Shown piece by piece: positions 27,439 to 54,339 of a DNA stretch of 64,000 nt (positions are counted from its first letter, which is position 1; each line of letters begins with the position of its first letter). Where the stretch lies: NCBI GenBank assembly GCA_963849615.1, contig CAWKIC010000010.1:13396-77395 (forward strand), written 5' to 3'. The position numbers and the translations under genes are program-made. The notes below the pieces were generated by a model that saw only the letters and a list, made by a program, of their open reading frames with translations, was not told the origin of the DNA and did not search any database. The stretch is from an uncultured Bacteroidales bacterium (GTDB lineage: Bacteria; Bacteroidota; Bacteroidia; Bacteroidales; VadinHA17).

Positions 27439-28246
27439 ATGAGCAGGGAACGATCTGAATTCAAAAGTAAGGTCCGGCTCAAAAAAGGATAATTCCGGCC
27501 AGAGTACCCTGAATTTATTGCCAGGTTTTATGATCTGATCTACCACCAGGTGCGTGATGGAGTTGACAATCATTTCTACCTCGACAGGATTAAGGAAACA
27601 AATGGGAAAATCCTTGAGGCAGGTGTCGGAACCGGAAGGCTCTTTACTGAAGCGCTTGAAAACCGGTGCAGATATTTATGGAATTGATTTCAGCCCGTCC
27701 ATGCTTACGGTGTTAAATTCAAAACTCAGTGCTGAGCAAAAGAAACGGGTAAGCCTTCAGAATATCGTGGATTTTAAATCGAAATAAGGTTCGACCTGAT
27801 AATTGCTCCTTTCCGGGTATTTATGCATCTTACCACCAAGGAGGAACAATTGAAGGCTCTTAATAATGTCCATGCTTCATCTCAGTCACGGAGGAAAATT
27901 TATTTTTGATGCATTTGTTCCTGACCTTAAAATGCTGATAAACGGATTGGATAATGTATCAGATTTTGAAGGTGAATTTGAACCCGGCAACCGGGTTAAA
28001 AGAATTATTTCGACAAAACCTGATTTGATAAATCAGCTCATCAATATCACTTTCAGAATTGAATGGAATGAAGGAAATTCAAATTACACCAGGGAATGGA
28101 AAAGTCCAATGCATTATTTCTTCAGGTTTGAACTTGAGCATCTGATAGAGCGCTCACATTTTTCGCAGTATAGAATAATCGGAGATTTTATGGGTAACGA
28201 ACTCAACCCTGATTCGAAGGAATTTATAATTTTATGTCAGAAATAA
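27439..28246 (+). pseudogene. class I SAM-dependent methyltransferase, at least 4 frame disruptions
   Basis: Motif I is ILEAGVGTGR, followed by GIDFSPSML, FDLIIAPF and GGKFIFD. These occur in successive different frames. Confidence 0.7.
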
Positions 28247-30487
28247 ACACAATCAAATCAAGGATGACAGCCATTAACAAACAACTTGCTGCTACGGTTT
28301 CAATAATCGTACTGATACTTTCCTCATGTACGCAAAACAGCGTTGACCCGGTCGGTTATGTAAATCCATACATCGGAAATATAAGTCACCTGCTCGTACC
28401 TACATACCCTACTGTTCATATTCCGAACAGCATGGTTCGCTTTTATCCGGAAAGGGACAATTTTACATCAAATAAAATGCAGGGTTTTCCTCTGAATGTT
28501 GTATCGCATCGCGACGGTAAAGCCTTTTCACTTGTTCCTTTCACGGGAAACGGGGAAGATTTAACCGGTATGTCATTTACATTTGATAATGAAACAATTA
28601 CACCATATAGTTATAGTGTAACTCTTGATGAATCTGATATTGATGTAAAATTCGCTCCGGCCGAAAAATCAGGTTTCTTTTCTTTCCGGTTCAATGGCAA
28701 TGAAAACAACGGAATAATTCTCAGGACAACCGGACTGGGCGAACTGACTTTTGAGAACGGCTCGGTAACCGGTCACGACACCAATAACGGTGTGAAATCC
28801 TGTCTCTGCCTTGAGTTTGACAAAATGCCCGACAAAATAAGTACCCGTAAAAACGATACTATATCTCAGGAGTCATCGGTTAATGGAAGAAGGGTAGCAA
28901 TTATTGCATCATTTAAGTCCGTGGCATCGGAATTGAATATCCGCTACGGCCTCTCATATATCAGTTCTGACCAGGCGAGAAAGAACCTTCATGACAATAT
29001 CGGGAACCGGAGCTTTGGTGAGATATCGGATAATGCCAGAAATAAATGGAATGCCCTGCTTTCAAAGATTGAAGTTGAAGGAGGAACACCAAAACCAGCG
29101 GACTGTATTTTACACGTCACTTTACAGGTGCAGTGAAAGGATGGTCGACATAACCGAAGACGGACAATATTTCAGCATCTGGAGTAATAGGGTTGAACCA
29201 GCAAATGATACCAGCTTTTTTACTGACGACTGGGTATGGGATACCCATCTGGCACTGCATCCGTTGCAGGTCATCCTTAATCCTTCAGCCCAGGATGAAA
29301 AGATCTCATCGTATATCAGAATGGCCAGACAGTCGGGCTGGATGCCGACATTCCCGACAATATCAGGAGATAACCATGCAATGAACGGAAATCATTCAGT
29401 GGCGGTAGTCCTCGATGCCTGGAATAAAGGTATCCGTAACTTCGATCTTGAAGAAGCATATAATCATTTAAAACATACAATACTCTTCGAGACAAAGCTT
29501 CCCTGGGTTAAGGGAGATGCTACACCCCTCGATGACTTTTATGACAGGAAGGGCTACTTCCCTGCACTCAGGAAGGGAGAAGCGGAAACTTATCCGCAGG
29601 TTCATTCTTTCGAAAAAAGACAGGCCGTGGCAATTACCCTTGCCTCAAGCTATGACGACTGGTGCATGGCCCAGATCGCCAGGGAACTTGGAAACCAGGA
29701 CGATTATGATTTCTTCATTAAAAGGAGCCTCAACTACAAAAATCTTTTTAATACCGAAACCGGATTTTATCATCCTAAAGACAGCACTGGCAACTGGATT
29801 GAGCCATTTGACTACCGTTACGATGGCGGAATGGGAGCACGTGACTATTACGACGAAAATAACGGCTGGACATATATCTGGCAGCCATTCCATGCCTTTG
29901 ATGACCTTATTGAAATGATGGGTGGCATAGAGAAATTCGATAACAAGCTTGACCAGCTCTTTACCGAAAGTCTGGGAAGGTCAAAGTGGGTTTATTATTC
30001 AACCCTGCCGGATGCCACAGGTAATGTAGGCCAGTTTGTTATGGGAAATGAGCCTTCAATGCACATAGCTTATCTTTACAACCTTGCCGGGAAACCCTGG
30101 AAGACGCAGAAACGGGTCCGCATGCTGATGGACACATGGTTCAGAAATGACCTGATGGGCATCCCCGGTGACGAGGACGGTGGCGGATTATCGGCATTCT
30201 ATGTTTTTTCTGCAATGGGTTTTTATCCTGTTACACCAGGTATTCCCGAATATCAGATCGGAAGCCCCCTGTTCAGCAGGGTAAAAATTCACCTTCAAAA
30301 TGGCAAGACTTTTACCGTTGTGGCCAAAAATAACAGCCAGGTTAACAAGTATATCCAGTCAGCGAATCTGAATGGTACCGAACTCACAAAAACAACAATC
30401 ACCCACAGTGATATTGTGGAAGGAGGTACACTTGTCCTGGAAATGGGGGGAAAGCCTGATAAAGAGTGGGGTACCGGATACCGATAA
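28234..30487 (+). CDS. GH92-family alpha-mannosidase (one frame disruption near 29090)
   Basis: VNPYIGN, FYTSLYR, DWVWDTH and GNEPSMHIAYLYNLAGKPWKTQ are classic GH92 blocks. The break fits one extra base. Confidence 0.85.
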
Positions 30488-39133: not shown

Positions 39134-41465
39134 ATGAGACCAAAACCTACTATTCTGCCTGGTTTAGTCCTGATGCTTACATTTTGTTCTGTCATATATT
39201 GTCAGGATGCTCCATCGGGGATGAAGATCTGGTTCAACAAGCCTGCAGGATCATGGAATGAGGCACTTCCTGTCGGGAACGGTCGCCTAGGTGCAATGGT
39301 ATTCGGTGGAGTTGAAAATGAACGCCTGCAGCTCAATGAAGAATCAGTATGGACCGGGGAATCCCGATGGGATGCCAATCCGGAAGCACTAAAAGCTCTT
39401 CCTGATGTCAGGACACTTCTGTTCAACGGGAAATACAGGGAAGCTGAAAAACTGGCACAGGAAAGAATAATGGGAACCATCAGGCGCGATGAAAAATCGA
39501 GCTATCAGACCCTGGGTGACCTTACCCTAAATTTTGGCGCAAACCGGGGAATTTCAGGCTACCGCCGCGAACTTGACATCGAAGATGCAATAGCACGAAT
39601 TTACTATACAACTAATCAGGTAAAATATTCCCGCGAAATTTTCTCAAGTTTTCCCTCTCAGGTACTTGTGATAAGGCTGACAGCTGACAAACCCGGAGCT
39701 TTAACTTTTACGGTAAGGCTTTCAAGACCAGGGAATAATGCTTCAATAAATGCACATGACAATGAAATCCGGATGAGCGAACATATCGGAAACGGGCTTG
39801 GTGTTAAAATTGAATCACGGCTCAGGGTCATGGCTGAAATGGGAACCCTGATTTCAGATGGCGACAGTATCAGAATTGAAAAAGCTGACGCAGTTTTAAT
39901 TTTGCTGGCTGCCGCAACTGATTATTCCGGAGATGATCCCGGACCATTATGTGCCAACAGGTTGGATTCTGTCACCAGACGCTCATATTCAGATATTAAG
40001 GAGGCTCACATTGCTGATTACCAGTCATTTTTCAAACGGGTCACAATCGAACTTGGCGGAAGTGACGGAAATTACTTTACCACTGATGCCAGGATCACAG
40101 CAATGCAGAACGGCTACACTGATACGGATCTGATTGAACTATACTATCAGTTTGGCAGGTATCTGCTTATCAGCAGTTCCCGTCCCGGAGACCTTCCTGC
40201 CAACCTTCAGGGGATCTGGGCCGATGGACTGCAGCCGCCATGGAGCGCCGACTATCACATTAATATAAATATCCAGATGAACTACTGGCCCTCTGAGATC
40301 ACAAACCTCGGGGAGCTTCAATTGCCGTTAGTTGATTTCATAGATGCCATGAGACCCAATGCCAGACGTACAGCTAAAGAGGTTTATGGATTGAAGGGTA
40401 TTGTAGCCCATTATACCACTGATGTTTGGCATTACACTGAGCCCATGGGCGCACTGGTATATGGAATGTGGCCAATGGGAATAGCCTGGAGCTGCCAGAA
40501 TATCTGGGACCATTACCAGTTTGGCGGTGATATTGATTACCTCAGGAATAAAGCATACCCGATAATGAAAGAGACTGCTGAGTTTTGTGTCGGATGGCTG
40601 GTTGTAAATCCTGAGACAGGATTGCTTGTCTCCGGACCTTCAATTTCTCCTGAGAACCGGTTTAAAATACCGGGAGAAGAAGGCACCGCCAGCCTGGTAA
40701 TGGGACCGACGATGGATCATATGATAATACGGGATCTTCTACAGAATACGATAAAGGCAAGCACTGTACTGGATGCCGATAAAGCATTCCGGATAACTAT
40801 GGAAAAAACTCTTGAACGGCTGACTCCTGTAAAGGTTAGCAGCGACGGACGCATCATGGAATGGTCGCGAGGAATTCGAAGAACCGGAACCGGGTCATCG
40901 CCACATATCACATCTTTACGGCCTTCATCCCGGAAACCAGATAACACAGAAAAATCCCGAATTGATGGAAGCCGCACGCAAGACAATCGATTACCGTCTT
41001 GCAAACGGTGGCGGACATACAGGCTGGAGCAGGGCATGGATAATTAACTTCTACGCCAGGCTGAGGGATGGAGAAAAAGCATGGGAGAGTGTGTTGGCGT
41101 TGCTTACAAAATCAACTCTGAATAATCTTTTCGACACTCATCCGCCATTCCAGATAGATGGTAATTTCGGAGGCACCGCAGGTATTACCGAGATGCTTCT
41201 TCAGAGTCACGCAGGGGAGGTCGAACTGCTGCCCGCCATTCCCTCAGAGTGGCAATTGGGAAATGTACATGGATTAATGGCACGGGGAGGTTTCGAGGTA
41301 GATATCGACTGGGAGAACGGGAAGCTGAAGCAGGCAAAGATCACATCTAAAACAGGGAATCCATTGAAAGTAAGCTACCAGGGAAAAACATCAGAAATTC
41401 AAGCTACCGAAAAAGGCAAATCGTATATTTTTACTTTAGGATCAACAGGATTGGCCGTTAATTAA
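39134..41465 (+). CDS. GH95-family alpha-L-fucosidase (one frame disruption near 40868)
   Basis: The N-terminal block [37 protein letters not shown] is present. Removing one base after tggtcg restores ..[25 protein letters not shown]... Confidence 0.85.
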
Positions 41466-45417: not shown

Positions 45418-46910
45418 ATGACTGAACCCATGAAAGTAGTAATCATAGGAGCCGGTATCGGAGGAATAACCACTGCAGTTTACCTTGCTAAAAACGGATA
45501 TTCTGTTAATGTATATGAAAAGAATTCTGAGCCTGGTGGCCGGTGCAGCCGGCTGATCCGGAACGGGCACAGGTTTGACCTGGGTGCAACAATGCTCCTG
45601 ATGCCCGGAATATATCAGGAGGTTTTTAGCTCTCTTGGCATCAGCCTTGAGCCAAACCGCGATATAATCTCTCTTGAAAACCTTTATAAAATATATTTCG
45701 ATGATGGCAGCAGCCTGGCATTTACTTCCGATAAAGATAAAATGGCAATGCAGCTTGAAAGGATCGAGACCGGGAGTTCTGAGAAATCCCGGGACTATGT
45801 CAGAAAAGGTTACACGATTTTCAAACTGGCCATGGACAGACTTATCGGCAGGAATTTTTATAATATCTTCCAGATGATAAATCTGAAGAACATTCCTCTG
45901 TTGTTTAAAATCAAGGCCTTTACACCCCATTTTAAATATGCCACGAGGTTTTTTAAGCACCCTCACCTTCTTATGGCGTACACCTTCCAGAATATTTACG
46001 TTGGACAAAGTCCGTTCAACTCTCCGGCATTGTTCTCGATGGTGCCTGCGGCAGAATTGACTGAAGGTTCATATTTCCCTGCCTCGGGGGTATGTTCTGC
46101 ATTGTTGAAAAACTGATTAAAGCAGCTGTTGAGAATGGCGTTAAGTTCTACTATGACAGTCCGGTAAAAAAGATAGTGGTAAAAGGAAAAAGAACAGAAG
46201 GAATTATCCTTGGCAACAATACTGAAATAAGTGCAGATCTGTTGATCGCGAATGCTGATCTCCCCTATGTTTACCGTGAATTGCTGCCCGGCAGACGGGC
46301 CTCATCACGTCTTGAAAAACTTAAATATTCCTGTTCTGCAATTTGTTTTCACTGGGGCCTTGATAAAATTTACCCCCAGCTAGGTAACCATAGTGTCATC
46401 TTATCCGACGGTTTCAAGGCCGGTCTGGACAGAATTTTCAGGGAAAAGTCTGTAAGCGACACCCCGAGTTTTTATGTGCATGCTCCGGCAAGAACGGATC
46501 CCACCTCAGCACCTCCGGGTCATGACACTCTTTCCGTAGTTGTTGCAGCCGGCCATCTCGACAGGAAATTCAGGCAGGATTGGGAGGGAACGAGGGCAAG
46601 AACCAGGGTATCAGTTATAAAGCGGCTCAGGGAGCTTGGCCTCGAAGACTTTGATGATCATATTAAGTTCGAGATCTGCTATTCGCCTGAAGACTGGGAG
46701 AAAGCATGCAATATTTCAAGAGGTTCCGTCTTCGGTAGCCTTGCCCATAATATTTTTCAGATGGGTTATTTTCGTCCGCATAACAGGCATAATAAATACA
46801 AAAACCTTTATTTTGTAGGTGGAAGCACTCATCCCGGGAACGGAATTCCAAATGTCCTGATCTCCGCAAAGCTGGTATCCGAAAGGATATTGAAAGAAAA
46901 CAAGATTTAA
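45418..46910 (+). CDS. crtI: phytoene desaturase (one frame disruption near 46085)
   Basis: VVIIGAGIGGITTA..YEKN.EPGGR is followed by ..GGM..IVEKL.. in the next frame. The C-terminus has FVGGSTHPGNGIP. Confidence 0.8.
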
Positions 46911-46928
46911 TTATAACCTGACTTTTAA

Positions 46929-47843
46929 GTGTTAATAAACTCACAAAGGGAACAATTCATTAAGATATTCAACTCGATTGATTTCAATAAGATAATCGAT
47001 CATCCCAATATTCTCATTGCTGCCAATTTCTGGGAAGAGGACAGGTATTGTGCTGCCAGGACATGCTATAATTTCATGAGGACAATTGACGATATGATTG
47101 ATAATCATAAAGCCAACAAGAGGTTTATAGCATCAGAGGAAAGAGCTGGATTGGTCAGGGATGTCAACGACTGGCTTAAAATGATTATCGTAACCAACAA
47201 TTGCGGGCCGGAACATTCAGATATTGTCAAAATCATTCAAAAATTCAGGATCCCTGTCTGGCCAATTGAAGAATTTGCAAAATCGATGATCTACGACATC
47301 AATAATGAAGGATTTCCGACTCTTGAAGCATTTCTTAAATATTCCAGAGGCGCTTCGGTAGCACCGGCTTCAATTTTTGTACACCTGAGCGGTTTGACAA
47401 GAAAAAACGGTGACTATATTGAACCTTCATTTGATGTACGGGAAGCTGCCGTCCCATGTGCGATTTTCAGTTACCTTGTCCATATAATCCGTGATTTTCA
47501 GAAGGATCAGTTCAATAACCTGAACTATTTCGCTGATGACCTGGCAACAAAATACGGCCTGACGAGAAGGGATTTAAGCGACATCGCTCATGGAAGCCCT
47601 GTAACTGCCGGCTTTCGTTCAATGATAAAGGAATACTATGATCTTGCCGATGAATACCGGATCAAAACCCGTGACATAATTGGTAAGATAAGGCCGTTGA
47701 TGGATCCGCGATACCAGTTGAGCCTTGAGATCATTTTTGATCTTTATCTTCTGGTCTTCGAAAGAATTAATGTCGAAAAGGGCAGCTTTACGTCCTTCGA
47801 GCTTAACCCGCGGCCTGAAGAAACACGTGAAAGAGTATTATGA
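46929..47843 (+). CDS. crtB: phytoene/squalene synthase-family protein
   Basis: 304 aa with a GTG start. Asp-rich motifs are MRTIDDMID and an IIRDFQKD region. It lies immediately downstream of crtI. Confidence 0.75.
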   Translation: MLINSQREQFIKIFNSIDFNKIIDHPNILIAANFWEEDRYCAARTCYNFMRTIDDMIDNHKANKRFIASEERAGLVRDVNDWLKMIIVTNNCGPEHSDIVKIIQKFRIPVWPIEEFAKSMIYDINNEGFPTLEAFLKYSRGASVAPASIFVHLSGLTRKNGDYIEPSFDVREAAVPCAIFSYLVHIIRDFQKDQFNNLNYFADDLATKYGLTRRDLSDIAHGSPVTAGFRSMIKEYYDLADEYRIKTRDIIGKIRPLMDPRYQLSLEIIFDLYLLVFERINVEKGSFTSFELNPRPEETRERVL

Positions 47844-48650: not shown

Positions 48651-48909
48651 TGGCTTCAGTTCCTTTCCGGGGTCTTCCATATCTTCAAAGTATCTTTTAA
48701 TCCCGGCTCCGGCATTAAAATGATCAGATTCCCCGAGTGATTTAAATGCCAGTTATCCTGCAATTATAGAAACTCTGTTGATATAAGGCGGAATATAAAC
48801 CTGGAAGTTTTAGTAAATTGAAATATCAATTACTTCGGCCCGTTTTAAAAATGTGGCATAAGTTTTGTCATTGATTGGTTGTAACAATGTTCTTCTAATA
48901 ACAAACGTC

Positions 48910-50395
48910 ATGAAAAAGTTCTTAATCACCTCGATTCTCGCAACACTGGTTGCAGCCGGGACCACAATTATGGCTCAGGAGTATCCGGATGAATATCTGG
49001 GTTTGCCTGGAGATAACCTTAACCTTTACGCCGTAATGAAGTTGTTCCAGGAATCAGAAACCATCGAAGGTTTTGAAAGAAGCCTGAACGATGAAAATTC
49101 ACGGATAAACAACCTCGATCTTAACGGCGACAATTACATTGATTACCTCAAGGTAATCGATTACGTCGATGGCGATGTCCATACCATAGTTCTGCAGGCA
49201 GTCCTTGACCGGAACGAAACCCAGGATGCTGCTGTCTTTACAGTCCAGCGGTTACGCGACGGATCAGTACAGATACAGCTCACAGGTGATGAGGCTTTGT
49301 ACGGCAGAAATTACATCATCGAACCTATATTGACCAGACGCCGAATCCCGGCTACCTCGGAAGGCAAAACGCAAACGTTGTCAGGACCACAACAATTCAA
49401 ATTGCGTCCTGGCCGCTGGTACGATACATTTATATGCCTGAATCTACGACGTATGGCGCTCGTCGTGGTACTGGGGGCTACTACCCGTCATATCTGGCAC
49501 CCCGGCGTCCATTCTACTGGCATTACTACTACGGTTATCACTATCACTGGTATCCGAGATGACAGTCATTACCGTCACTGGGACAACGACCGGTATTTAC
49601 GCTGGAACGATTTTTACTACAACGGCACAAAAGTTATTCAACAACGTCAGCATAAGGATTAACTCAGGTAATTACAGGACAACCTATTCACATCCTGAGT
49701 ACCGGAGGGATGGGGAAGCCCTCTATACGAAGGTACATCCTGACAGGGGCACCAGGTCATCAACAGTATCCTCAGGAAATGATAACGGCAGGAGATCCGC
49801 TACACAGTCAACGACCTCCGGACGGTCAACAGGAACCTCAGCCGGATCAAGGAGATCAACTTCCTCCGTAACGAACAGATCCGATGGGGCCAGGTCATCA
49901 GCCCAGTCTTCAGGAACTTCAAGAAGGTCGACCTCCACGGTTACCAACAGATCTGAATCCACGACATCCGGCGGTAGAACCACTGTCCGTCAGTCTTCCT
50001 CAACCGGGAATGACAGGGCAAGGACAAACACCCCTGCCGGACAAAGTACAAGTTCCACCAGAAGGTCGTCTTCTACTGCCTCTTCATCCGGCCAGAGCAC
50101 CAGCCCGAGCCGTCAGTCGTCTACTACAGTGAATGCTAGCGCAAGGACTAATTCCTCTGCCGGTCAGGTTGCCAGTTCTTCAAGGAGGTCATCTTCCTCC
50201 GGTTCAGAACAGTCAGTTTCAAGACCTGCCCCGAGTCAAAGGACTGAAAGTGCAAGATCATCAAAACCCTCAAGCTCCAGCGCGGGTACATCAGCACGCA
50301 GGAGCAGCAGCGGCAGCAGCAAGTCCTCAGGCGCTTCCAAGTCGACCAGCAAGTCTAAAGATTCAGAAGGCAAAAGCACTTCCCGCCGGAAATAA
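48910..50395 (+). pseudogene. secreted protein with Ser/Thr/Arg-rich low-complexity tail (at least 3 frame disruptions between 49320 and 49560)
   Basis: A signal peptide (MKKFLITSILATLVAAG) and a globular N-terminal domain are followed by a Y/W/H-rich segment in shifting frames. The last ~230 aa are an S/T/R-rich tail. Confidence 0.55.
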
Positions 50396-50460: not shown

Positions 50461-50630
50461 GGGTTGTTGAAAAAGTTGATTTTTTGGACTTTTTCCCTTT
50501 GCGTTCCTTAGTGTCATACTTTGCGATCCTTTGTGGTATTAAATTATGTTTAACCACAAAGTACTAAAACCTGCCTGCCGGCAGGCAGGGGTTATCACGA
50601 AGGTTCACAAAGGACTTTTTCAACAGCCCC
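50461..50630. mobile_element. MITE-like palindromic element, copy B (~170 bp)
   Basis: It is colinear with 34989-35156, with only scattered substitutions (e.g. ctttgcg vs ctttgtg). The terminal inverted repeats are the same. Confidence 0.75.
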
Positions 50631-50708: not shown

Positions 50709-51905
50709 TTAAAATGCAGTTATCACCCCCACATTCACTTTGCCATACGATGTCCCGGTAAACTGCTGTGTATATTCCCCGACCACCCTCATATTGCGCC
50801 TGAGAAGGTATCCTGCGTGCAGGGTTGCCGAAGAGTAATCGAGGGGATCATAATGGGATTCCACCCAGTTAAAAAGGCCTGTAAGATACCATTTGCTCAT
50901 ATCACCTTTTGGTGCATAGATGATTTCTGCAAAAGCCCCGGAAGTCACCACATCTTTTTCAACCTGGTAAGGAAATCCCAAAAGGATCACATCTGAATCA
51001 GTCCTTCTTACATACTGTGCATTAATAATGAATTTTTCATTAAAGTCGATTGTAAGATCCGGTCCGAACATTTTTATCTCGCTAACAAGCAAAACCAGGG
51101 GGTCACGAACAACCTCCTTCCCAGTATACCCGAACACCCCTATGGAAAGGTATTTACCGATTGACTGGTTAATCCTGAGCATGAAGTTTTTATACTTGTC
51201 CTTATCGAACAGGAACCCTTCCCCGGCCTCACCGATGCCGTTTCCGTTCAATATTTCTCCGACCAGTGTAGTACCAGTTTTGAAACTCCTGTCAAAGATA
51301 ATGCCCCTGTCATATTTCAGGTCAGCGCTTGATGAGCCTGGTCTGGACTCGTATATCCTGTAAGGTTCAAGAGTATACCGCAACTCTCCCTTGAATAAAG
51401 GATCAGATACCTGGAACTGTCCGGCAAACAGGTTAATCCCCGATCCGAGAAAATCGTGGTACATGACAAAAGCATCTTCCAGCCCGGCGACTGATCCTCT
51501 TTCATTGAAAAGAAAATAAAAATAATATGATAATTTGTCCGAGAGCTCACCCCCTGAAAGTATCTTCACAACAAACGGGGCGGCAAAATCTGTCGTTCCT
51601 TCATTACCGAAATTATAAGAAGCAAAACCATCCATCCTGATTGCAAGCGGAAGTTCCCTGAAAAGGGAAAGTTTGTCGTCGCCTGTCTGGATAAAATATC
51701 TTGGTGATTCATATTCAGTCAGCCTGAAACCATTCCCGGCAAAAGTGTCGCCAAAGGGCTTAAGCCTTGGTATTGCCGGAGAATGGCATACCTGGCAGCT
51801 TATCTGGTATTTCCTCGCAAAGGCAGGAATCGAATATAGATTATCTGAAACCAAAATGGAAATAATTGCAAAAAAAACAATCTTCAGAGTGACTTGTCTT
51901 TTCAT
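50709..51905 (-). CDS. outer-membrane beta-barrel protein with N-terminal CxxCH heme-binding motif
   Basis: Intact 398 aa. A signal peptide ending AFA is followed by RKYQISCQVCHSPAIPRLKPFGDTF. The remainder shows an alternating amphipathic strand pattern, and the C-terminal residue is Phe (..GVITAF), as in OM barrels. Confidence 0.7.
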   Translation of the reverse strand: MKRQVTLKIVFFAIISILVSDNLYSIPAFARKYQISCQVCHSPAIPRLKPFGDTFAGNGFRLTEYESPRYFIQTGDDKLSLFRELPLAIRMDGFASYNFGNEGTTDFAAPFVVKILSGGELSDKLSYYFYFLFNERGSVAGLEDAFVMYHDFLGSGINLFAGQFQVSDPLFKGELRYTLEPYRIYESRPGSSSADLKYDRGIIFDRSFKTGTTLVGEILNGNGIGEAGEGFLFDKDKYKNFMLRINQSIGKYLSIGVFGYTGKEVVRDPLVLLVSEIKMFGPDLTIDFNEKFIINAQYVRRTDSDVILLGFPYQVEKDVVTSGAFAEIIYAPKGDMSKWYLTGLFNWVESHYDPLDYSSATLHAGYLLRRNMRVVGEYTQQFTGTSYGKVNVGVITAF

Positions 51906-51981
51906 TGTGATGTATTATGATGGTTTTTATATTCAGTCTGATCCTTTCAGGGGCTGGATAAAAGGTTTCTTTTAAAGTTCT

Positions 51982-52090
51982 TACCCTTTGATAACCTTTG
52001 TGTTAACCTTTGTGACCTTTGTGGTATAAATTTATTTTTTACCACAAAGGACTCTAAGGTTCTCACTAAGGTACACTAAGGACTTTTTGA
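51982..52090. repeat. heptamer palindrome repeat between cytochrome and barrel genes
   Basis: ccctttgataacctttgtgttaacctttgtgacctttgtggta - AT loop - taccacaaaggactctaaggttctcactaaggtacactaagg. Confidence 0.75.
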
Positions 52091-52109
52091 TCTATCATAT
52101 ACCGAAATA

Positions 52110-53492
52110 CTAAGGCAAAATATTGACTTTTGTTGAATGTTCATTGACCATCAGTATTTGAGACTCTTCAGCCGGAACTTTAAGCAGATCTGCTACCGGT
52201 TTAACGAGAAGCTGATAGTTAAGCACTGCCCTTACCTTCATTTCACCGGGTGCAACATCAAAAGGCAACCTGAAAGTGAATTTTTCAACTTTGGCTTCCC
52301 TTGGTCCAATACGATAATCTGTTCCAAGTTTTGCAGTGTTCCATTGCATGATCGTCATTCTTCCTTCCGGATCGAAATAAGCCATCCTGAAGATCCTGTT
52401 TCCGGCTGGTATACCATCCCGTAAAACCCCCTTAAAATCCGGCTGTCCAAGAGGTACGCCCAGATCCTGGTACGCCAGATCATTGCCTGAAATTGTATAT
52501 TCTTCTCCCTCAAAACCTTTCTTATCAACATTTATATGATATATCTTCCCCTTTGCATCGGTGGCTTCAACCTGTAACCATACTATCCGGTCCTCCACTG
52601 ATCCTGTTGGGAATTTATGACCCGTTTTCTGGTTGAACAAAGCAACGTTAAAAACTATTATTTCTCCCGGTTCCGCCTCCCTGATATCGGGTTCAATCCT
52701 CAGTTCAATGGTCCCCCGTACTTTTCCGGGATCGTGGGCTCCATGGAAAAGATGAAGCCTCGCATCATCATACGGTTTTGTCATCAGGGCATTCAGAAAA
52801 GGTCCACCTTTCGGCATGTGGCAATCCTGGCAGCGCACTCCCTCCTTTGAATAGGGCCCCTCCTTCCATTCCAGCTGCGTACTTTTAACCCAGATGCCGA
52901 AGGGATTCTTTTCATTGTGGCAGTTCCCGCAGAATTCGGTTGTGCGGAAGAAATCACTTGTTACGATCTTGTGAGCCGGCGATTCAACGGTAGGTGTCCG
53001 TCCTGCATATTTTGTCATCCCGGGCTTTATAAGGTAACTGTAGTTAAACGGCGGATCCGACTGTGCAGCTTGTACAAGGTGACAAACTTCACATGAAACC
53101 GATTCGTTTGCCATGCTTTTTGCATCAGGCCTCGGAGGCGGAAATTCCTTCCCACCCATAAAAGCAAGCGGTGTATGACACCCATTGCATCCGTCAACTG
53201 CATCTTTCAGTTCAGGTTTCGCAACTGAATGAGCAACTGCAAGGTCAAAATACTCAATTTCGTCCCAGTGATGTGTGTAGGCTTGCGACATCATTGCCTG
53301 TGACCACTGTTCATAGGTACCGGGGTGGCACGAACGGCATTTTTTAGATGATTCAAAATCTTTATAGGAATACTTGCTTTTCAGATCCTCCTGTGGCCCT
53401 CTTAAACTGTTGGTAAAAGCTGTAAGTAAGAATACGATTAGAGCGACCGGAATCAGAAGGAATAAAAGAGCAGAATAATTTCTTCTGTTCAT
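52110..53492 (-). CDS. pentaheme c-type cytochrome, membrane-anchored/secreted
   Basis: Intact 460 aa with an N-terminal hydrophobic anchor. Five CxxCH motifs are present (CRSCH, CNGCH, CEVCH, CGNCH, CQDCH) in the first ~230 aa, followed by a ~200-aa beta-rich C-terminal domain. Confidence 0.85.
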   Translation of the reverse strand: MNRRNYSALLFLLIPVALIVFLLTAFTNSLRGPQEDLKSKYSYKDFESSKKCRSCHPGTYEQWSQAMMSQAYTHHWDEIEYFDLAVAHSVAKPELKDAVDGCNGCHTPLAFMGGKEFPPPRPDAKSMANESVSCEVCHLVQAAQSDPPFNYSYLIKPGMTKYAGRTPTVESPAHKIVTSDFFRTTEFCGNCHNEKNPFGIWVKSTQLEWKEGPYSKEGVRCQDCHMPKGGPFLNALMTKPYDDARLHLFHGAHDPGKVRGTIELRIEPDIREAEPGEIIVFNVALFNQKTGHKFPTGSVEDRIVWLQVEATDAKGKIYHINVDKKGFEGEEYTISGNDLAYQDLGVPLGQPDFKGVLRDGIPAGNRIFRMAYFDPEGRMTIMQWNTAKLGTDYRIGPREAKVEKFTFRLPFDVAPGEMKVRAVLNYQLLVKPVADLLKVPAEESQILMVNEHSTKVNILP

Positions 53493-53645: not shown

Positions 53646-54339
53646 ATGAGATACATTACAAGTTCGATTGTACCGTCGCTAATCCTTTCCGTCAATCTGC
53701 TCGTTGCCCAGAAAAGTGATCCCTATATTCCGGATTTCAGCCAGCCTGCAACCATAGTCGGAATGAAGCTTGTCTGGAATGATGAGTTCAATGCTGAAGG
53801 GAAACCCGATCCTTCCTCATGGAGATATGAGAATGGATTTGTGAGGAACAATGAACTTCAATGGTACCAGGCAGCTAACGTCAACTGTAAAGGAGGGGTT
53901 CTTCTTATTGAAGGGAAACGGGAGTTGCTGAGGAACCCGGGGTATGTAGCAGGCAGTGCCAGCTGGCGGACGGCCAGGGAATATGCAGAATATACATCTG
54001 CAAGTATTCAAACCCGGGGATTCAGGGAGTGGCAGTTCGGCCGTTTCGAGATACGGGCCAGGATTGATACTGCAAAAGGTTCATGGCCTGCAATCTGGAC
54101 CCTTGGAATCTCCCATGGATGGCCTTCAGGCGGGGAGATTGATATTATGGAGTTCTACAGGGTTAAAGGAGTCCCAACGATCCTTGCAAATTTTGCCTGG
54201 GGAACCGAAAAACGGGGCGTGGCAAAATGGGATGACCTCAGAAAACCCCTTTCTGGGAGCAGCGGGAGGTGATCCCTCAAAATCGCCATCACCCATAAAA
54301 TATGAAGTAGACTGGGTAAGGATTTACCAGGAAGAGTGA
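53646..54339 (+). CDS. GH16-family beta-glucanase (laminarinase/licheninase-like) (one frame disruption near 54230)
   Basis: WNDEFN, GRFEIRARI, WPAIWTL and the catalytic block GGEIDIMEF are present. The C-terminus ..YEVDWVRIYQEE is in the next frame. Confidence 0.85.

Follow-up and report, generated by a model that had tools for sequence, protein, structure and literature searches.

A probable Cyc2-family cytochrome-porin encoded beside a pentaheme cytochrome in an uncultured Bacteroidales bacterium

Why would a predicted outer-membrane barrel protein of a Bacteroidales bacterium carry its own c-type heme attachment motif directly behind its signal peptide, and with what could such a protein exchange electrons? 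The question is raised by a gene in a stretch of 64,000 nucleotides from an uncultured Bacteroidales bacterium (GenBank assembly GCA_963849615.1, contig CAWKIC010000010.1, positions 13,396 to 77,395 of the forward strand), referred to here as the window. The gene, located at window positions 50709-51905 on the minus strand, very probably encodes a member of the Cyc2 family of fused cytochrome-porins, as judged from its sequence motifs and a predicted structure, and the gene directly upstream of it encodes a pentaheme c-type cytochrome. An original prediction, made from the sequence alone, noted the motif and set it against the premise that the porin component of porin-cytochrome systems has no heme itself. 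This premise is true for MtrCAB, MtoAB and PioAB but overlooks fused monoheme cytochrome-porins such as Cyc2 and Cyt572, which are found in Acidithiobacillus, Leptospirillum, Zetaproteobacteria and Gallionellaceae (PMC8406198). The implied novelty of a heme-bearing porin is therefore gone, since the Cyc2 family is known and Cyc2 homologs have been reported earlier in metagenome-assembled genomes (MAGs) of Ignavibacteriaceae and "members of the Bacteroidetes" (He et al. 2019, PMC6344600). The heme-bearing porin is already known as a kind, and the Bacteroidales protein adds a member to it.

The heme attachment motif and its conservation

The open reading frame (ORF) at 50709-51905 (-) encodes a 398-amino-acid protein whose translation starts MKRQVTLKIVFFAIISILVSDNLYSIPAFARKYQISCQVCHSPAIPRLKPFGDTFAGNGFRL. 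The reverse complement of bases 51783-51797 (-) reads TGC CAG GTA TGC CAT, encoding C37-Q-V-C40-H41, a single c-type heme attachment motif (CxxCH). A single CxxCH at the mature N-terminus of the barrel protein is thus found as the original prediction stated, with the translation as quoted there, and the interval to which it had drawn attention (51780-51830) corresponds to residues 26-42. The motif exceeds chance, because the protein contains only two Cys, both inside CQVCH, and its own composition leads to an expectation of approximately 1e-4 CxxCH per protein. Residues 1-30 (51816-51905, -) form a predicted Sec signal peptide, recognized by inspection, with MKR, a hydrophobic core and an AxA site (A28-F29-A30); a helix is predicted at residues 2-18 by AlphaFold2, and the region is poorly conserved (13% identity). 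The cleavage site, near A30|R31, was placed by inspection of the sequence only; on this placement six residues precede C37, which is number seven in the predicted mature protein. The motif had been described as lying about eight residues past the cleavage site (..IPAFA); the location is correct, while the count is slightly too high. The whole motif block of the window protein reads S-I-P-A-F-A-R-K-Y, Q-I-S, C-Q-V-C-H, S-P-A-I and P-R-L. Overlapping the predicted cleavage site is P27-A-F-A-R-K-Y33 (51807-51827, -), which corresponds to the PXFAR[Q/K][T/Y] motif as defined in PMC8406198, and downstream of the heme motif P46-R-L48 (the PXL described in the same paper) is followed by K-P-F-G52-D-T-F55-A-G-N-G59 (51729-51770, -).

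The motif and its surroundings are conserved among homologs that were gathered by whole-protein similarity and not by the motif. A search of 5.8 billion proteins yielded more than 4200 homologs, the best 120 of which are 69-100% identical to the query, those with names being "hypothetical protein" entries from Bacteroidales MAGs. Two of these 120 are truncated at the N-terminus and were left out of the count; 117 of the 118 close homologs with a complete N-terminus contain exactly one CxxCH together with P.FAR[QK][TY], and the sole exception reads AITAFARKY, with T replacing P, and keeps CQVCH. An exhaustive HMMER search of 1.84 billion cluster representatives (50%-identity clusters) returned 1046 matches, and among the best 150 of these, all 43 full-length sequences contain CxxCH exactly once, within residues 28-60 and with the same surroundings. 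An alignment of 44 sequences with 24-66% identity to the query shows P27, C37, C40, H41, P46 and G52 to be invariant and F29, R31, L48 and F55 to be at least 90% conserved each. The "P..L..FG" stretch, whose conservation had been proposed as a check alongside that of the CxxCH, is conserved as well, and across 93 family-wide sequences P46 is found in 95%, L48 in 98%, G52 in 100% and F55 in 97%. The cytochrome segment is the best conserved part of the protein, with a mean identity to the query of 58% for residues 25-60 versus 36% for the barrel. A lack of conservation among homologs, which the original prediction had named as grounds for refutation, was thus not observed.

This pattern bears on the alternative, raised in the original prediction, that the motif is a non-heme Cys pair. 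If the CxxCH had arisen by chance, or if its Cys pair formed a disulfide or bound a metal, the protein would be an ordinary porin, which would agree with the resemblance of its barrel to general porins (see below) and with the heme of the window protein being predicted from sequence and not observed directly. We consider this explanation extremely improbable. Neither the Cys residues nor the His vary even in homologs of 24% identity, whereas identity in the barrel falls to approximately 36%, and the motif is flanked by Cyc2-specific motifs. In addition, the characterized family members are c-type cytochromes, and the adjacent gene encodes five CxxCH, so the organism makes c-type cytochromes. 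A chance motif was rejected on the low expected number given above and on the invariance across homologs, and a non-heme Cys pair was rejected since C, C and H are invariant together and the flanking motifs are specific to Cyc2.

Predicted structure of the barrel

The AlphaFold2 model built from a diverse alignment has a predicted local distance difference test (pLDDT) score of 90.4 and a predicted TM-score (pTM) of 0.88, and DSSP assigns 16 strands to residues 87-397 (50715-51647, -), consistent with a 16-strand beta-barrel. In the same model the heme segment (residues 31-60, pLDDT 85-91) forms a short helical segment, containing the motif, that precedes the barrel. The best matches found by Foldseek in the Protein Data Bank (PDB) are 16-strand general porins, namely VhChiP, OmpT/OmpU, PorB, OmpF and Omp32, with E values down to 7e-12 and TM-scores (query- and target-normalized) of 0.43-0.69. 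A profile search of the PDB by sequence gave no match for the barrel family.

Membership in the Cyc2 family

The established fused monoheme cytochrome-porins are Cyc2 of Acidithiobacillus ferrooxidans, Cyt572 of Leptospirillum and Cyc2PV-1 of Mariprofundus ferrooxydans PV-1 (PMC8406198). Iron-oxidizing activity has been verified for A. ferrooxidans Cyc2 and Cyt572; for Cyc2PV-1, spectra show that the heme becomes reduced when the protein reacts with Fe(II), and its measured redox potential is 208 mV (biochemistry cited in PMC8406198). Keffer et al. (2021, PMC8406198; see also McAllister et al. 2020) describe the family by a signal peptide, one CXXCH, AXPXFAR[Q/K][T/Y] upstream of it, PXL four residues downstream of it and a 16-strand barrel, and their screen combined a length of at least 365 amino acids, CXXCH and PXFAR[Q/K][T/Y] with a similarity threshold of blastp E <= 1e-5 against one query per cluster. 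The window protein has the signal peptide (by inspection), the single CXXCH, PXFAR[Q/K][T/Y], PXL and, with 398 amino acids, a length above 365. Its PXL lies four residues past CXXCH (H41-S-P-A-I-P46-R-L48), and its P27-Y33 motif ends three residues before C37, a spacing that is the same in homologs from Zetaproteobacteria, Gallionellaceae and Acidithiobacillus; the wording "5 amino acids upstream" in PMC8406198 is something we take as another way of counting. No Pfam or NCBIfam match was found for the window protein, and with more than 4000 homologs lacking a model in either collection, genome annotation renders such genes as "hypothetical protein". Together, the motifs and the modeled barrel make it very probable that the gene encodes a Cyc2-family fused cytochrome-porin.

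A link to recognized Cyc2 lineages was sought with a degenerate DNA pattern for P-x-F-A-R-[QK]-[TY]-x3-C-x2-C-H, scanned over one genome per species, which gave at least 120 loci. Motif conservation inside these loci is circular and was not counted as evidence of invariance. The loci listed include Cyc2-like ORFs of Zetaproteobacteria, Mariprofundus, Sideroxydans, Gallionellaceae, Acidithiobacillus and Nitrospira defluvii, together with several Bacteroidales MAGs, the cultured Marinilabilia salmonicolor (L019) and Ignavibacterium album (L098). By phmmer, the window protein matches sequences from Bacteroidales, Marinilabilia, Ignavibacteria, Kapabacteria and Gemmatimonadota over the full length, with E values of 1e-77 to 1e-197. 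The matches to the Zetaproteobacterial, Gallionellaceae and Acidithiobacillus types mainly cover the N-terminal ~60-150 residues, and in a database of 120 sequences, where stand-in sequences from MAGs of Zetaproteobacteria, Sideroxydans, Gallionellaceae, Acidithiobacillus and Mariprofundus represented these types, the matches were mostly to the N-terminal domain and ranged from 6e-11 (Mariprofundus, L007) to 1e-5 (Acidithiobacillus, L029). Profile-profile comparison by hhalign aligned the query clade with the Zetaproteobacterial/Gallionellaceae group over residues 25-126 (probability 97.6%, E 3e-12) and with the Acidithiobacillus-type group over residues 25-164 (probability 98.1%, E 7e-14). 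A second-iteration hidden Markov model (HMM), made solely from sequences matching the query directly, aligned full-length with Mariprofundus L007 (E 3e-68), N. defluvii (E 3e-92) and the Zetaproteobacterial Cluster-1-type sequence L032 (positions 5-379, E 7e-15). Taken together, these comparisons with the stand-ins strongly suggest similarity to recognized Cyc2 proteins, by a route other than the blastp threshold of Keffer et al. A rough neighbor-joining tree (a quick distance tree) separated three groups: a Zetaproteobacterial/Gallionellaceae group, a proteobacterial group with Acidithiobacillus, and a heterogeneous group with a second Zetaproteobacterial type, Nitrospirales, Acidobacteria and the query clade. 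The resemblance of these three groups to the published Clusters 1, 2 and 3 suggests that the window protein is "Cluster 3-like", within a Bacteroidota/Ignavibacteria clade.

Several points weigh against the assignment to the Cyc2 family of cytochrome-porins. The sequences that represent the iron-oxidizer types are MAG homologs from those lineages, standing in for the characterized proteins. Pairwise and profile-profile likeness to the Cluster 1 and 2 types is limited to the N-terminal 100-140 residues, and homology of the barrel to the characterized Cyc2 types, as far as sequence and model suggest it, rests on transitive profile searching and on the fold. Family-wide, among the 93 sequences, a second conserved His or Met that might serve as the distal heme ligand was not found. 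The function of Cluster 3 is called "most uncertain" by the authors who defined the family (PMC8406198). Genes of glycoside hydrolase (GH) families GH95, GH78, GH92 and GH16 lie nearby, and by its gene content the host looks like a saccharolytic Bacteroidales and not like a clear case of a lithotrophic iron oxidizer. Genes for cytochrome c maturation were not found within the window. The case for the window protein and its clade consists of sequence comparison, predicted structure and gene order.

Two further observations concern variation among the Cyc2 loci. One Zetaproteobacterial contig (L078, 13-57 and 3293-3337, +) contains two tandem cyc2 copies. Several MAG loci (L046, 5993-6367; L069; L044) contain only short ORFs of 93-124 amino acids with a complete N-terminal cytochrome motif; these may stem from frameshifts, or they may encode Cyc2-type cytochrome domains that stand on their own and lack a barrel.

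The upstream pentaheme cytochrome

If the protein passes electrons across the outer membrane, it needs to be asked what lies on the periplasmic side. The gene directly upstream (52110-53492, -) encodes a 460-amino-acid c-type cytochrome with five CxxCH and matches to Pfam Cytochrome_C7 and C554. The protein begins with an N-terminal hydrophobic helix that, from its sequence, could be a membrane anchor, and its C-terminal half is heme-free and partly beta. The NCBIfam ExtKL model matches it with E 1.1e-16 and 60.5 bits, a score far below the curated cut-off of 250 bits, and cytochrome c552 (PDB 5ZE8) matches it with E 2.4e-7; this pentaheme c552 of Thermochromatium tepidum has been grouped with ExtKL in a pentaheme cytochrome family (PMC11976967), whose hallmarks are five heme motifs, an ExtKL-like sequence and fold, and an Ig-like domain at the C-terminus. 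The partner has roughly 2600 homologs. In the source annotations, homologs of the partner are called "multiheme c-type cytochrome" or "NapC/NirT family". The AlphaFold2 model of the partner is poor (pLDDT 45.5), which probably reflects a shallow alignment (77-92% identity) and the absence of hemes; in that poor model, residues 262-458 are mainly strands.

The pairing of the two genes is constant within the clade. Among the loci listed, a homolog of the partner is located directly upstream of the cyc2-like gene, on the same strand and at a distance of 9-470 bp, at all 21 clade loci with enough upstream sequence. The clade comprises Bacteroidales, Marinilabilia, Kapabacteria, Melioribacteraceae and Ignavibacteria, plus a few others. 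The pair was recorded in the window and at L001-L004, L016, L019, L036, L037, L040, L042, L046, L061, L062, L075 and L076, with further pair loci at L081, L085, L089, L098, L099, L112 and L119. The partner is approximately 450 amino acids long throughout, with five CxxCH in Bacteroidales and four in the versions of Ignavibacteria and Kapabacteria, and the flanking genes vary between the paired loci. Among the loci listed, the partner was not found at those of the Gemmatimonadota sister branch or at any other Cyc2 loci. The Acidithiobacillus-type loci have a gene for a diheme protein of ~200-290 amino acids (Cyc1-type) directly downstream, the classical cyc2-cyc1 order. For the more distant representatives P0126, P0157, P0202 and P0173, no cytochrome neighbor was found or the contigs were too short to judge. 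For Bacteroidota and Ignavibacteria, the literature searched, whose coverage is incomplete, contained only reports of Cyc2 homologs and none of a multiheme-cytochrome-Cyc2 pairing; we did not find an earlier description of the conserved pentaheme partner, and it is the one aspect worth following up. The inside electron partner in this lineage, we infer, is most likely the ExtKL-like pentaheme cytochrome encoded upstream.

Possible mechanism and direction of electron flow

By analogy with the characterized family members, the cyc2-like protein would be exported by the Sec system and cleaved near A30|R31. A periplasmic cytochrome c maturation system would then attach a single heme c through covalent bonds at C37 and C40, and H41 would be its proximal axial ligand. 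The C-terminal ~310 residues would enter the outer membrane as a 16-strand barrel, and the heme domain of ~55 residues would stay attached at the periplasmic mouth of the barrel or within it. The original prediction that a heme-bearing segment could act as a plug or relay at the barrel agrees with the published Cyc2 model (PMC8406198). The single heme would carry electrons across the outer membrane, exchanging them on the outside with a small redox-active species able to enter the pore, for which Fe2+/Fe3+ is the most plausible candidate, and on the inside with a periplasmic carrier, most likely the upstream pentaheme cytochrome. The covalent attachment of heme, the place of its domain relative to the barrel and physical contact between Cyc2 and the pentaheme protein are all inferred features of this scheme. 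As for the direction of flow, Fe(II) oxidation is favored by precedent because the tested Cyc2 members accept electrons from Fe(II), while outward transfer is also possible in view of the partner's likeness to ExtKL, the probably organotrophic nature of the host and the relatives that reduce Fe(III).

Quite possibly, although we would not go so far as to call it probable, the protein is an outer-membrane Fe(II) oxidase in which Fe2+ enters the pore and reduces the heme, and the electrons move inward via the pentaheme cytochrome to the respiratory chain, serving either energy conservation or Fe(II) detoxification at oxic-anoxic interfaces. All biochemically tested members of the family (A. ferrooxidans Cyc2, Leptospirillum Cyt572 and Cyc2PV-1) receive electrons from Fe(II), the motifs of the cytochrome domain are fully conserved, and a 2026 study (PMC13647500) again interprets a Cluster 3-type Cyc2 as oxidizing iron. 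However, the known cultured relatives within the clade are organotrophs, and Ignavibacteria such as Melioribacter have been described as Fe(III) reducers, not iron oxidizers. In addition, the partner is an ExtKL-like pentaheme protein and not the downstream diheme Cyc1-type protein of the Acidithiobacillus-type loci, and He et al. (2017) noted that Cyc2 may serve other forms of extracellular electron transfer in organisms that do not oxidize iron.

Flow in the opposite direction is a tentative possibility. The two genes would then form a minimal outward conduit, in which the periplasmic pentaheme cytochrome, anchored or soluble, feeds respiratory or fermentative electrons to the Cyc2 heme; the acceptors at the pore would be Fe(III) in soluble or chelated form, humic quinones or the like. 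Such a conduit would be a hybrid of a fused cytochrome-porin and a porin-multiheme-cytochrome complex. The strict order of multiheme cytochrome gene and cyc2 is confined to this clade, and the partner resembles Geobacter ExtKL (1.1e-16), which is encoded beside an outer-membrane porin and has a proposed role in extracellular electron transfer (PMC11976967). The partner also matches the low-potential pentaheme c552 of T. tepidum (5ZE8). Moreover, the taxa with Cyc2 homologs include Fe(III) reducers, for example Ignavibacteriaceae (PMC6344600), and the host context is anaerobic and saccharolytic. Against outward flow it must be noted that no Cyc2 is known to work in that direction, that the ExtKL match falls far under the family cut-off (60 versus 250 bits), that the model of the partner is unreliable (pLDDT 45.5), and that adjacency of genes is no proof of a complex. 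A more general proposal is that, in the Bacteroidota/Ignavibacteria clade, Cyc2 was recruited to form with the ExtKL-like pentaheme protein a fixed two-gene conduit across periplasm and outer membrane, made of six hemes, two proteins and a 16-strand barrel, by which fermentative or anaerobically respiring organotrophs would discharge electrons to Fe(III) in solution or to humics or, equally, take them up; we regard this as an idea that could be correct but is rather unlikely.

Intergenic spacer and genomic neighborhood

The spacer of 204 nucleotides between the two genes (51906-52109, -) folds, as RNA, into a long hairpin of nested inverted repeats, with a free energy of -50.1 kcal/mol (z = -4.86 versus shuffles). 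It contains short direct repeats, three of the CCTTAGTG type and three of the CACAAAGGT type, which give rise to the nested inverted repeats. The spacer is shared only in part with L004, a locus of 91% identity, and is missing at L001 and L037, and the spacers of relatives measure 9-150 nucleotides. In a comparison with Rfam, all matches were far below the gathering scores. A terminator-like GC-rich hairpin followed by a T-run is located approximately 120 nucleotides past the cyc2 stop codon (50570-50589, -); it was identified by a consensus scan and is a pattern match only.

Elsewhere the window contains glycoside hydrolases, carotenoid-synthesis enzymes and housekeeping genes, and no respiratory genes were found in the window around the cytochrome pair. 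This setting bears on a third role, in which the heme is bound but serves a non-respiratory purpose, as in an iron or redox sensor, a porin gated by a heme plug, or a component of iron or heme acquisition. Consistent with such a role, Cyc2 homologs are widespread in organisms with no known iron redox metabolism (PMC6344600; He et al. 2017), and the pair lies among carbohydrate-utilization and carotenoid genes, with respiratory genes absent from the window. The obligatory five-heme partner, however, points to electron flow and not to sensing or transport, and no regulator or TonB-type uptake genes adjoin the pair, making a non-respiratory role improbable compared with electron transfer across the outer membrane.

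Several features of the neighborhood recur or stand out beside the pair. Carotenoid/squalene-type genes (SQS_PSY, amine-oxidase/CrtI-like and lycopene cyclase) lie a few kb from the pair in the window (45418-47843) and at two other loci (L001, 1632-4408; L004, 9923-12374). The relatives with carotenoid genes near the pair are 69-91% identical, and the association may be a coincidence or a loosely conserved neighborhood. A protein of ~500-528 amino acids with no Pfam match is encoded convergently, just downstream of cyc2, in the window (48865-50395, +), at L001 (7314-8900, -) and at L004 (7501-9000, -), the flanks of these three loci being otherwise different; it may be a third conserved neighbor of the module. 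In the window copy, the C-terminal half of this protein is an extreme Ser/Thr/Arg-rich low-complexity region. Furthermore, several genes of the window each appear as two overlapping ORFs, in contrast to a single gene in relatives, among them the phytoene-desaturase-like gene, the gene for the ~500-amino-acid protein and GH16. The intervals concerned are 45418-46910, 48865-50395, 53646-54339, 39134-41465 and 28234-30487, and the GH95 and GH92 regions are possibly split too, which suggests assembly frameshift errors or pseudogenes. The cyc2-like and pentaheme genes are intact.

Implications

The cyc2 gene is widely used, for example in FeGenie, as a marker gene of neutrophilic iron oxidation. 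The presence of a well-conserved cyc2 homolog in a carbohydrate-degrading Bacteroidales indicates that surveys relying on the marker may overstate iron oxidation in Bacteroidota and Ignavibacteria. If the conduit proposal is true, a "cyc2" match in these abundant bacteria of sediments, digesters and soils would not be a marker of iron oxidation. Recognizing the protein as Cyc2 also averts a false claim of novelty for "a porin with its own heme". In addition, the constant pairing with a pentaheme cytochrome provides a concrete hypothesis for the periplasmic link of a single-heme porin, and the carriers of the pair include the cultured Marinilabilia salmonicolor and Ignavibacterium album.

Comparison with known systems

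The window protein is most like Cyc2, Cyc2PV-1 and Cyt572, with which it has in common the signal peptide, the single N-terminal CXXCH, PXFAR[Q/K][T/Y], PXL, a length of approximately 400 amino acids, a predicted 16-strand barrel, a cytochrome segment as the most conserved part and a homology that is detectable by profiles. It differs from the characterized Cyc2 proteins in belonging, according to the rough tree, to a clade outside the Zetaproteobacterial/Gallionellaceae (Cluster 1-like) and Acidithiobacillus (Cluster 2-like) groups, and in having an upstream pentaheme neighbor instead of a downstream diheme Cyc1-type one. Its host is probably an organotroph, unlike the iron oxidizers from which the characterized Cyc2 proteins come. 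The barrel fold predicted for the window protein is also that of the 16-strand porins OmpF, PorB, Omp32, VhChiP and OprP/OprO, the last two of which (OprO and OprP) were the modeling templates for Cyc2PV-1 (PMC8406198). The sequence identity to the 16-strand general porins is only 9-15%, and neither these nor OprP/OprO have the N-terminal cytochrome domain that the window protein has.

The window locus resembles MtrCAB, MtoAB and PioAB in combining an outer-membrane barrel with one or more c-type hemes for electron transfer and in the adjacency of the barrel and multiheme genes. However, the porins of those systems have 26 strands, are heme-free and sheath a separate decaheme protein (PMC8406198), whereas the window barrel has 16 predicted strands, would not be wide enough to enclose a cytochrome and has a heme motif of its own, and the neighboring cytochrome has five hemes versus the ten of the MtrCAB-type partner. 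No sequence relationship of the window barrel to the MtrB/MtoB/PioB-type porins was found in Pfam or NCBIfam. An MtrB-like porin was rejected as an identity for the window protein, on the 16 strands instead of ~26, its own CXXCH, the five-heme neighbor and the lack of a match to the family models. The partner cytochrome finds its nearest counterparts in Geobacter ExtKL (of ExtHIJKL) and in 5ZE8, with which it has in common the five CxxCH, the C-terminal half of the partner being heme-free. Like ExtKL (PMC11976967), it is encoded beside an outer-membrane porin gene; unlike the predicted porin of the window, ExtI, the porin of Geobacter, lacks heme and shows no relation to Cyc2, and the window partner differs from ExtKL in its N-terminal hydrophobic helix, a possible membrane anchor.

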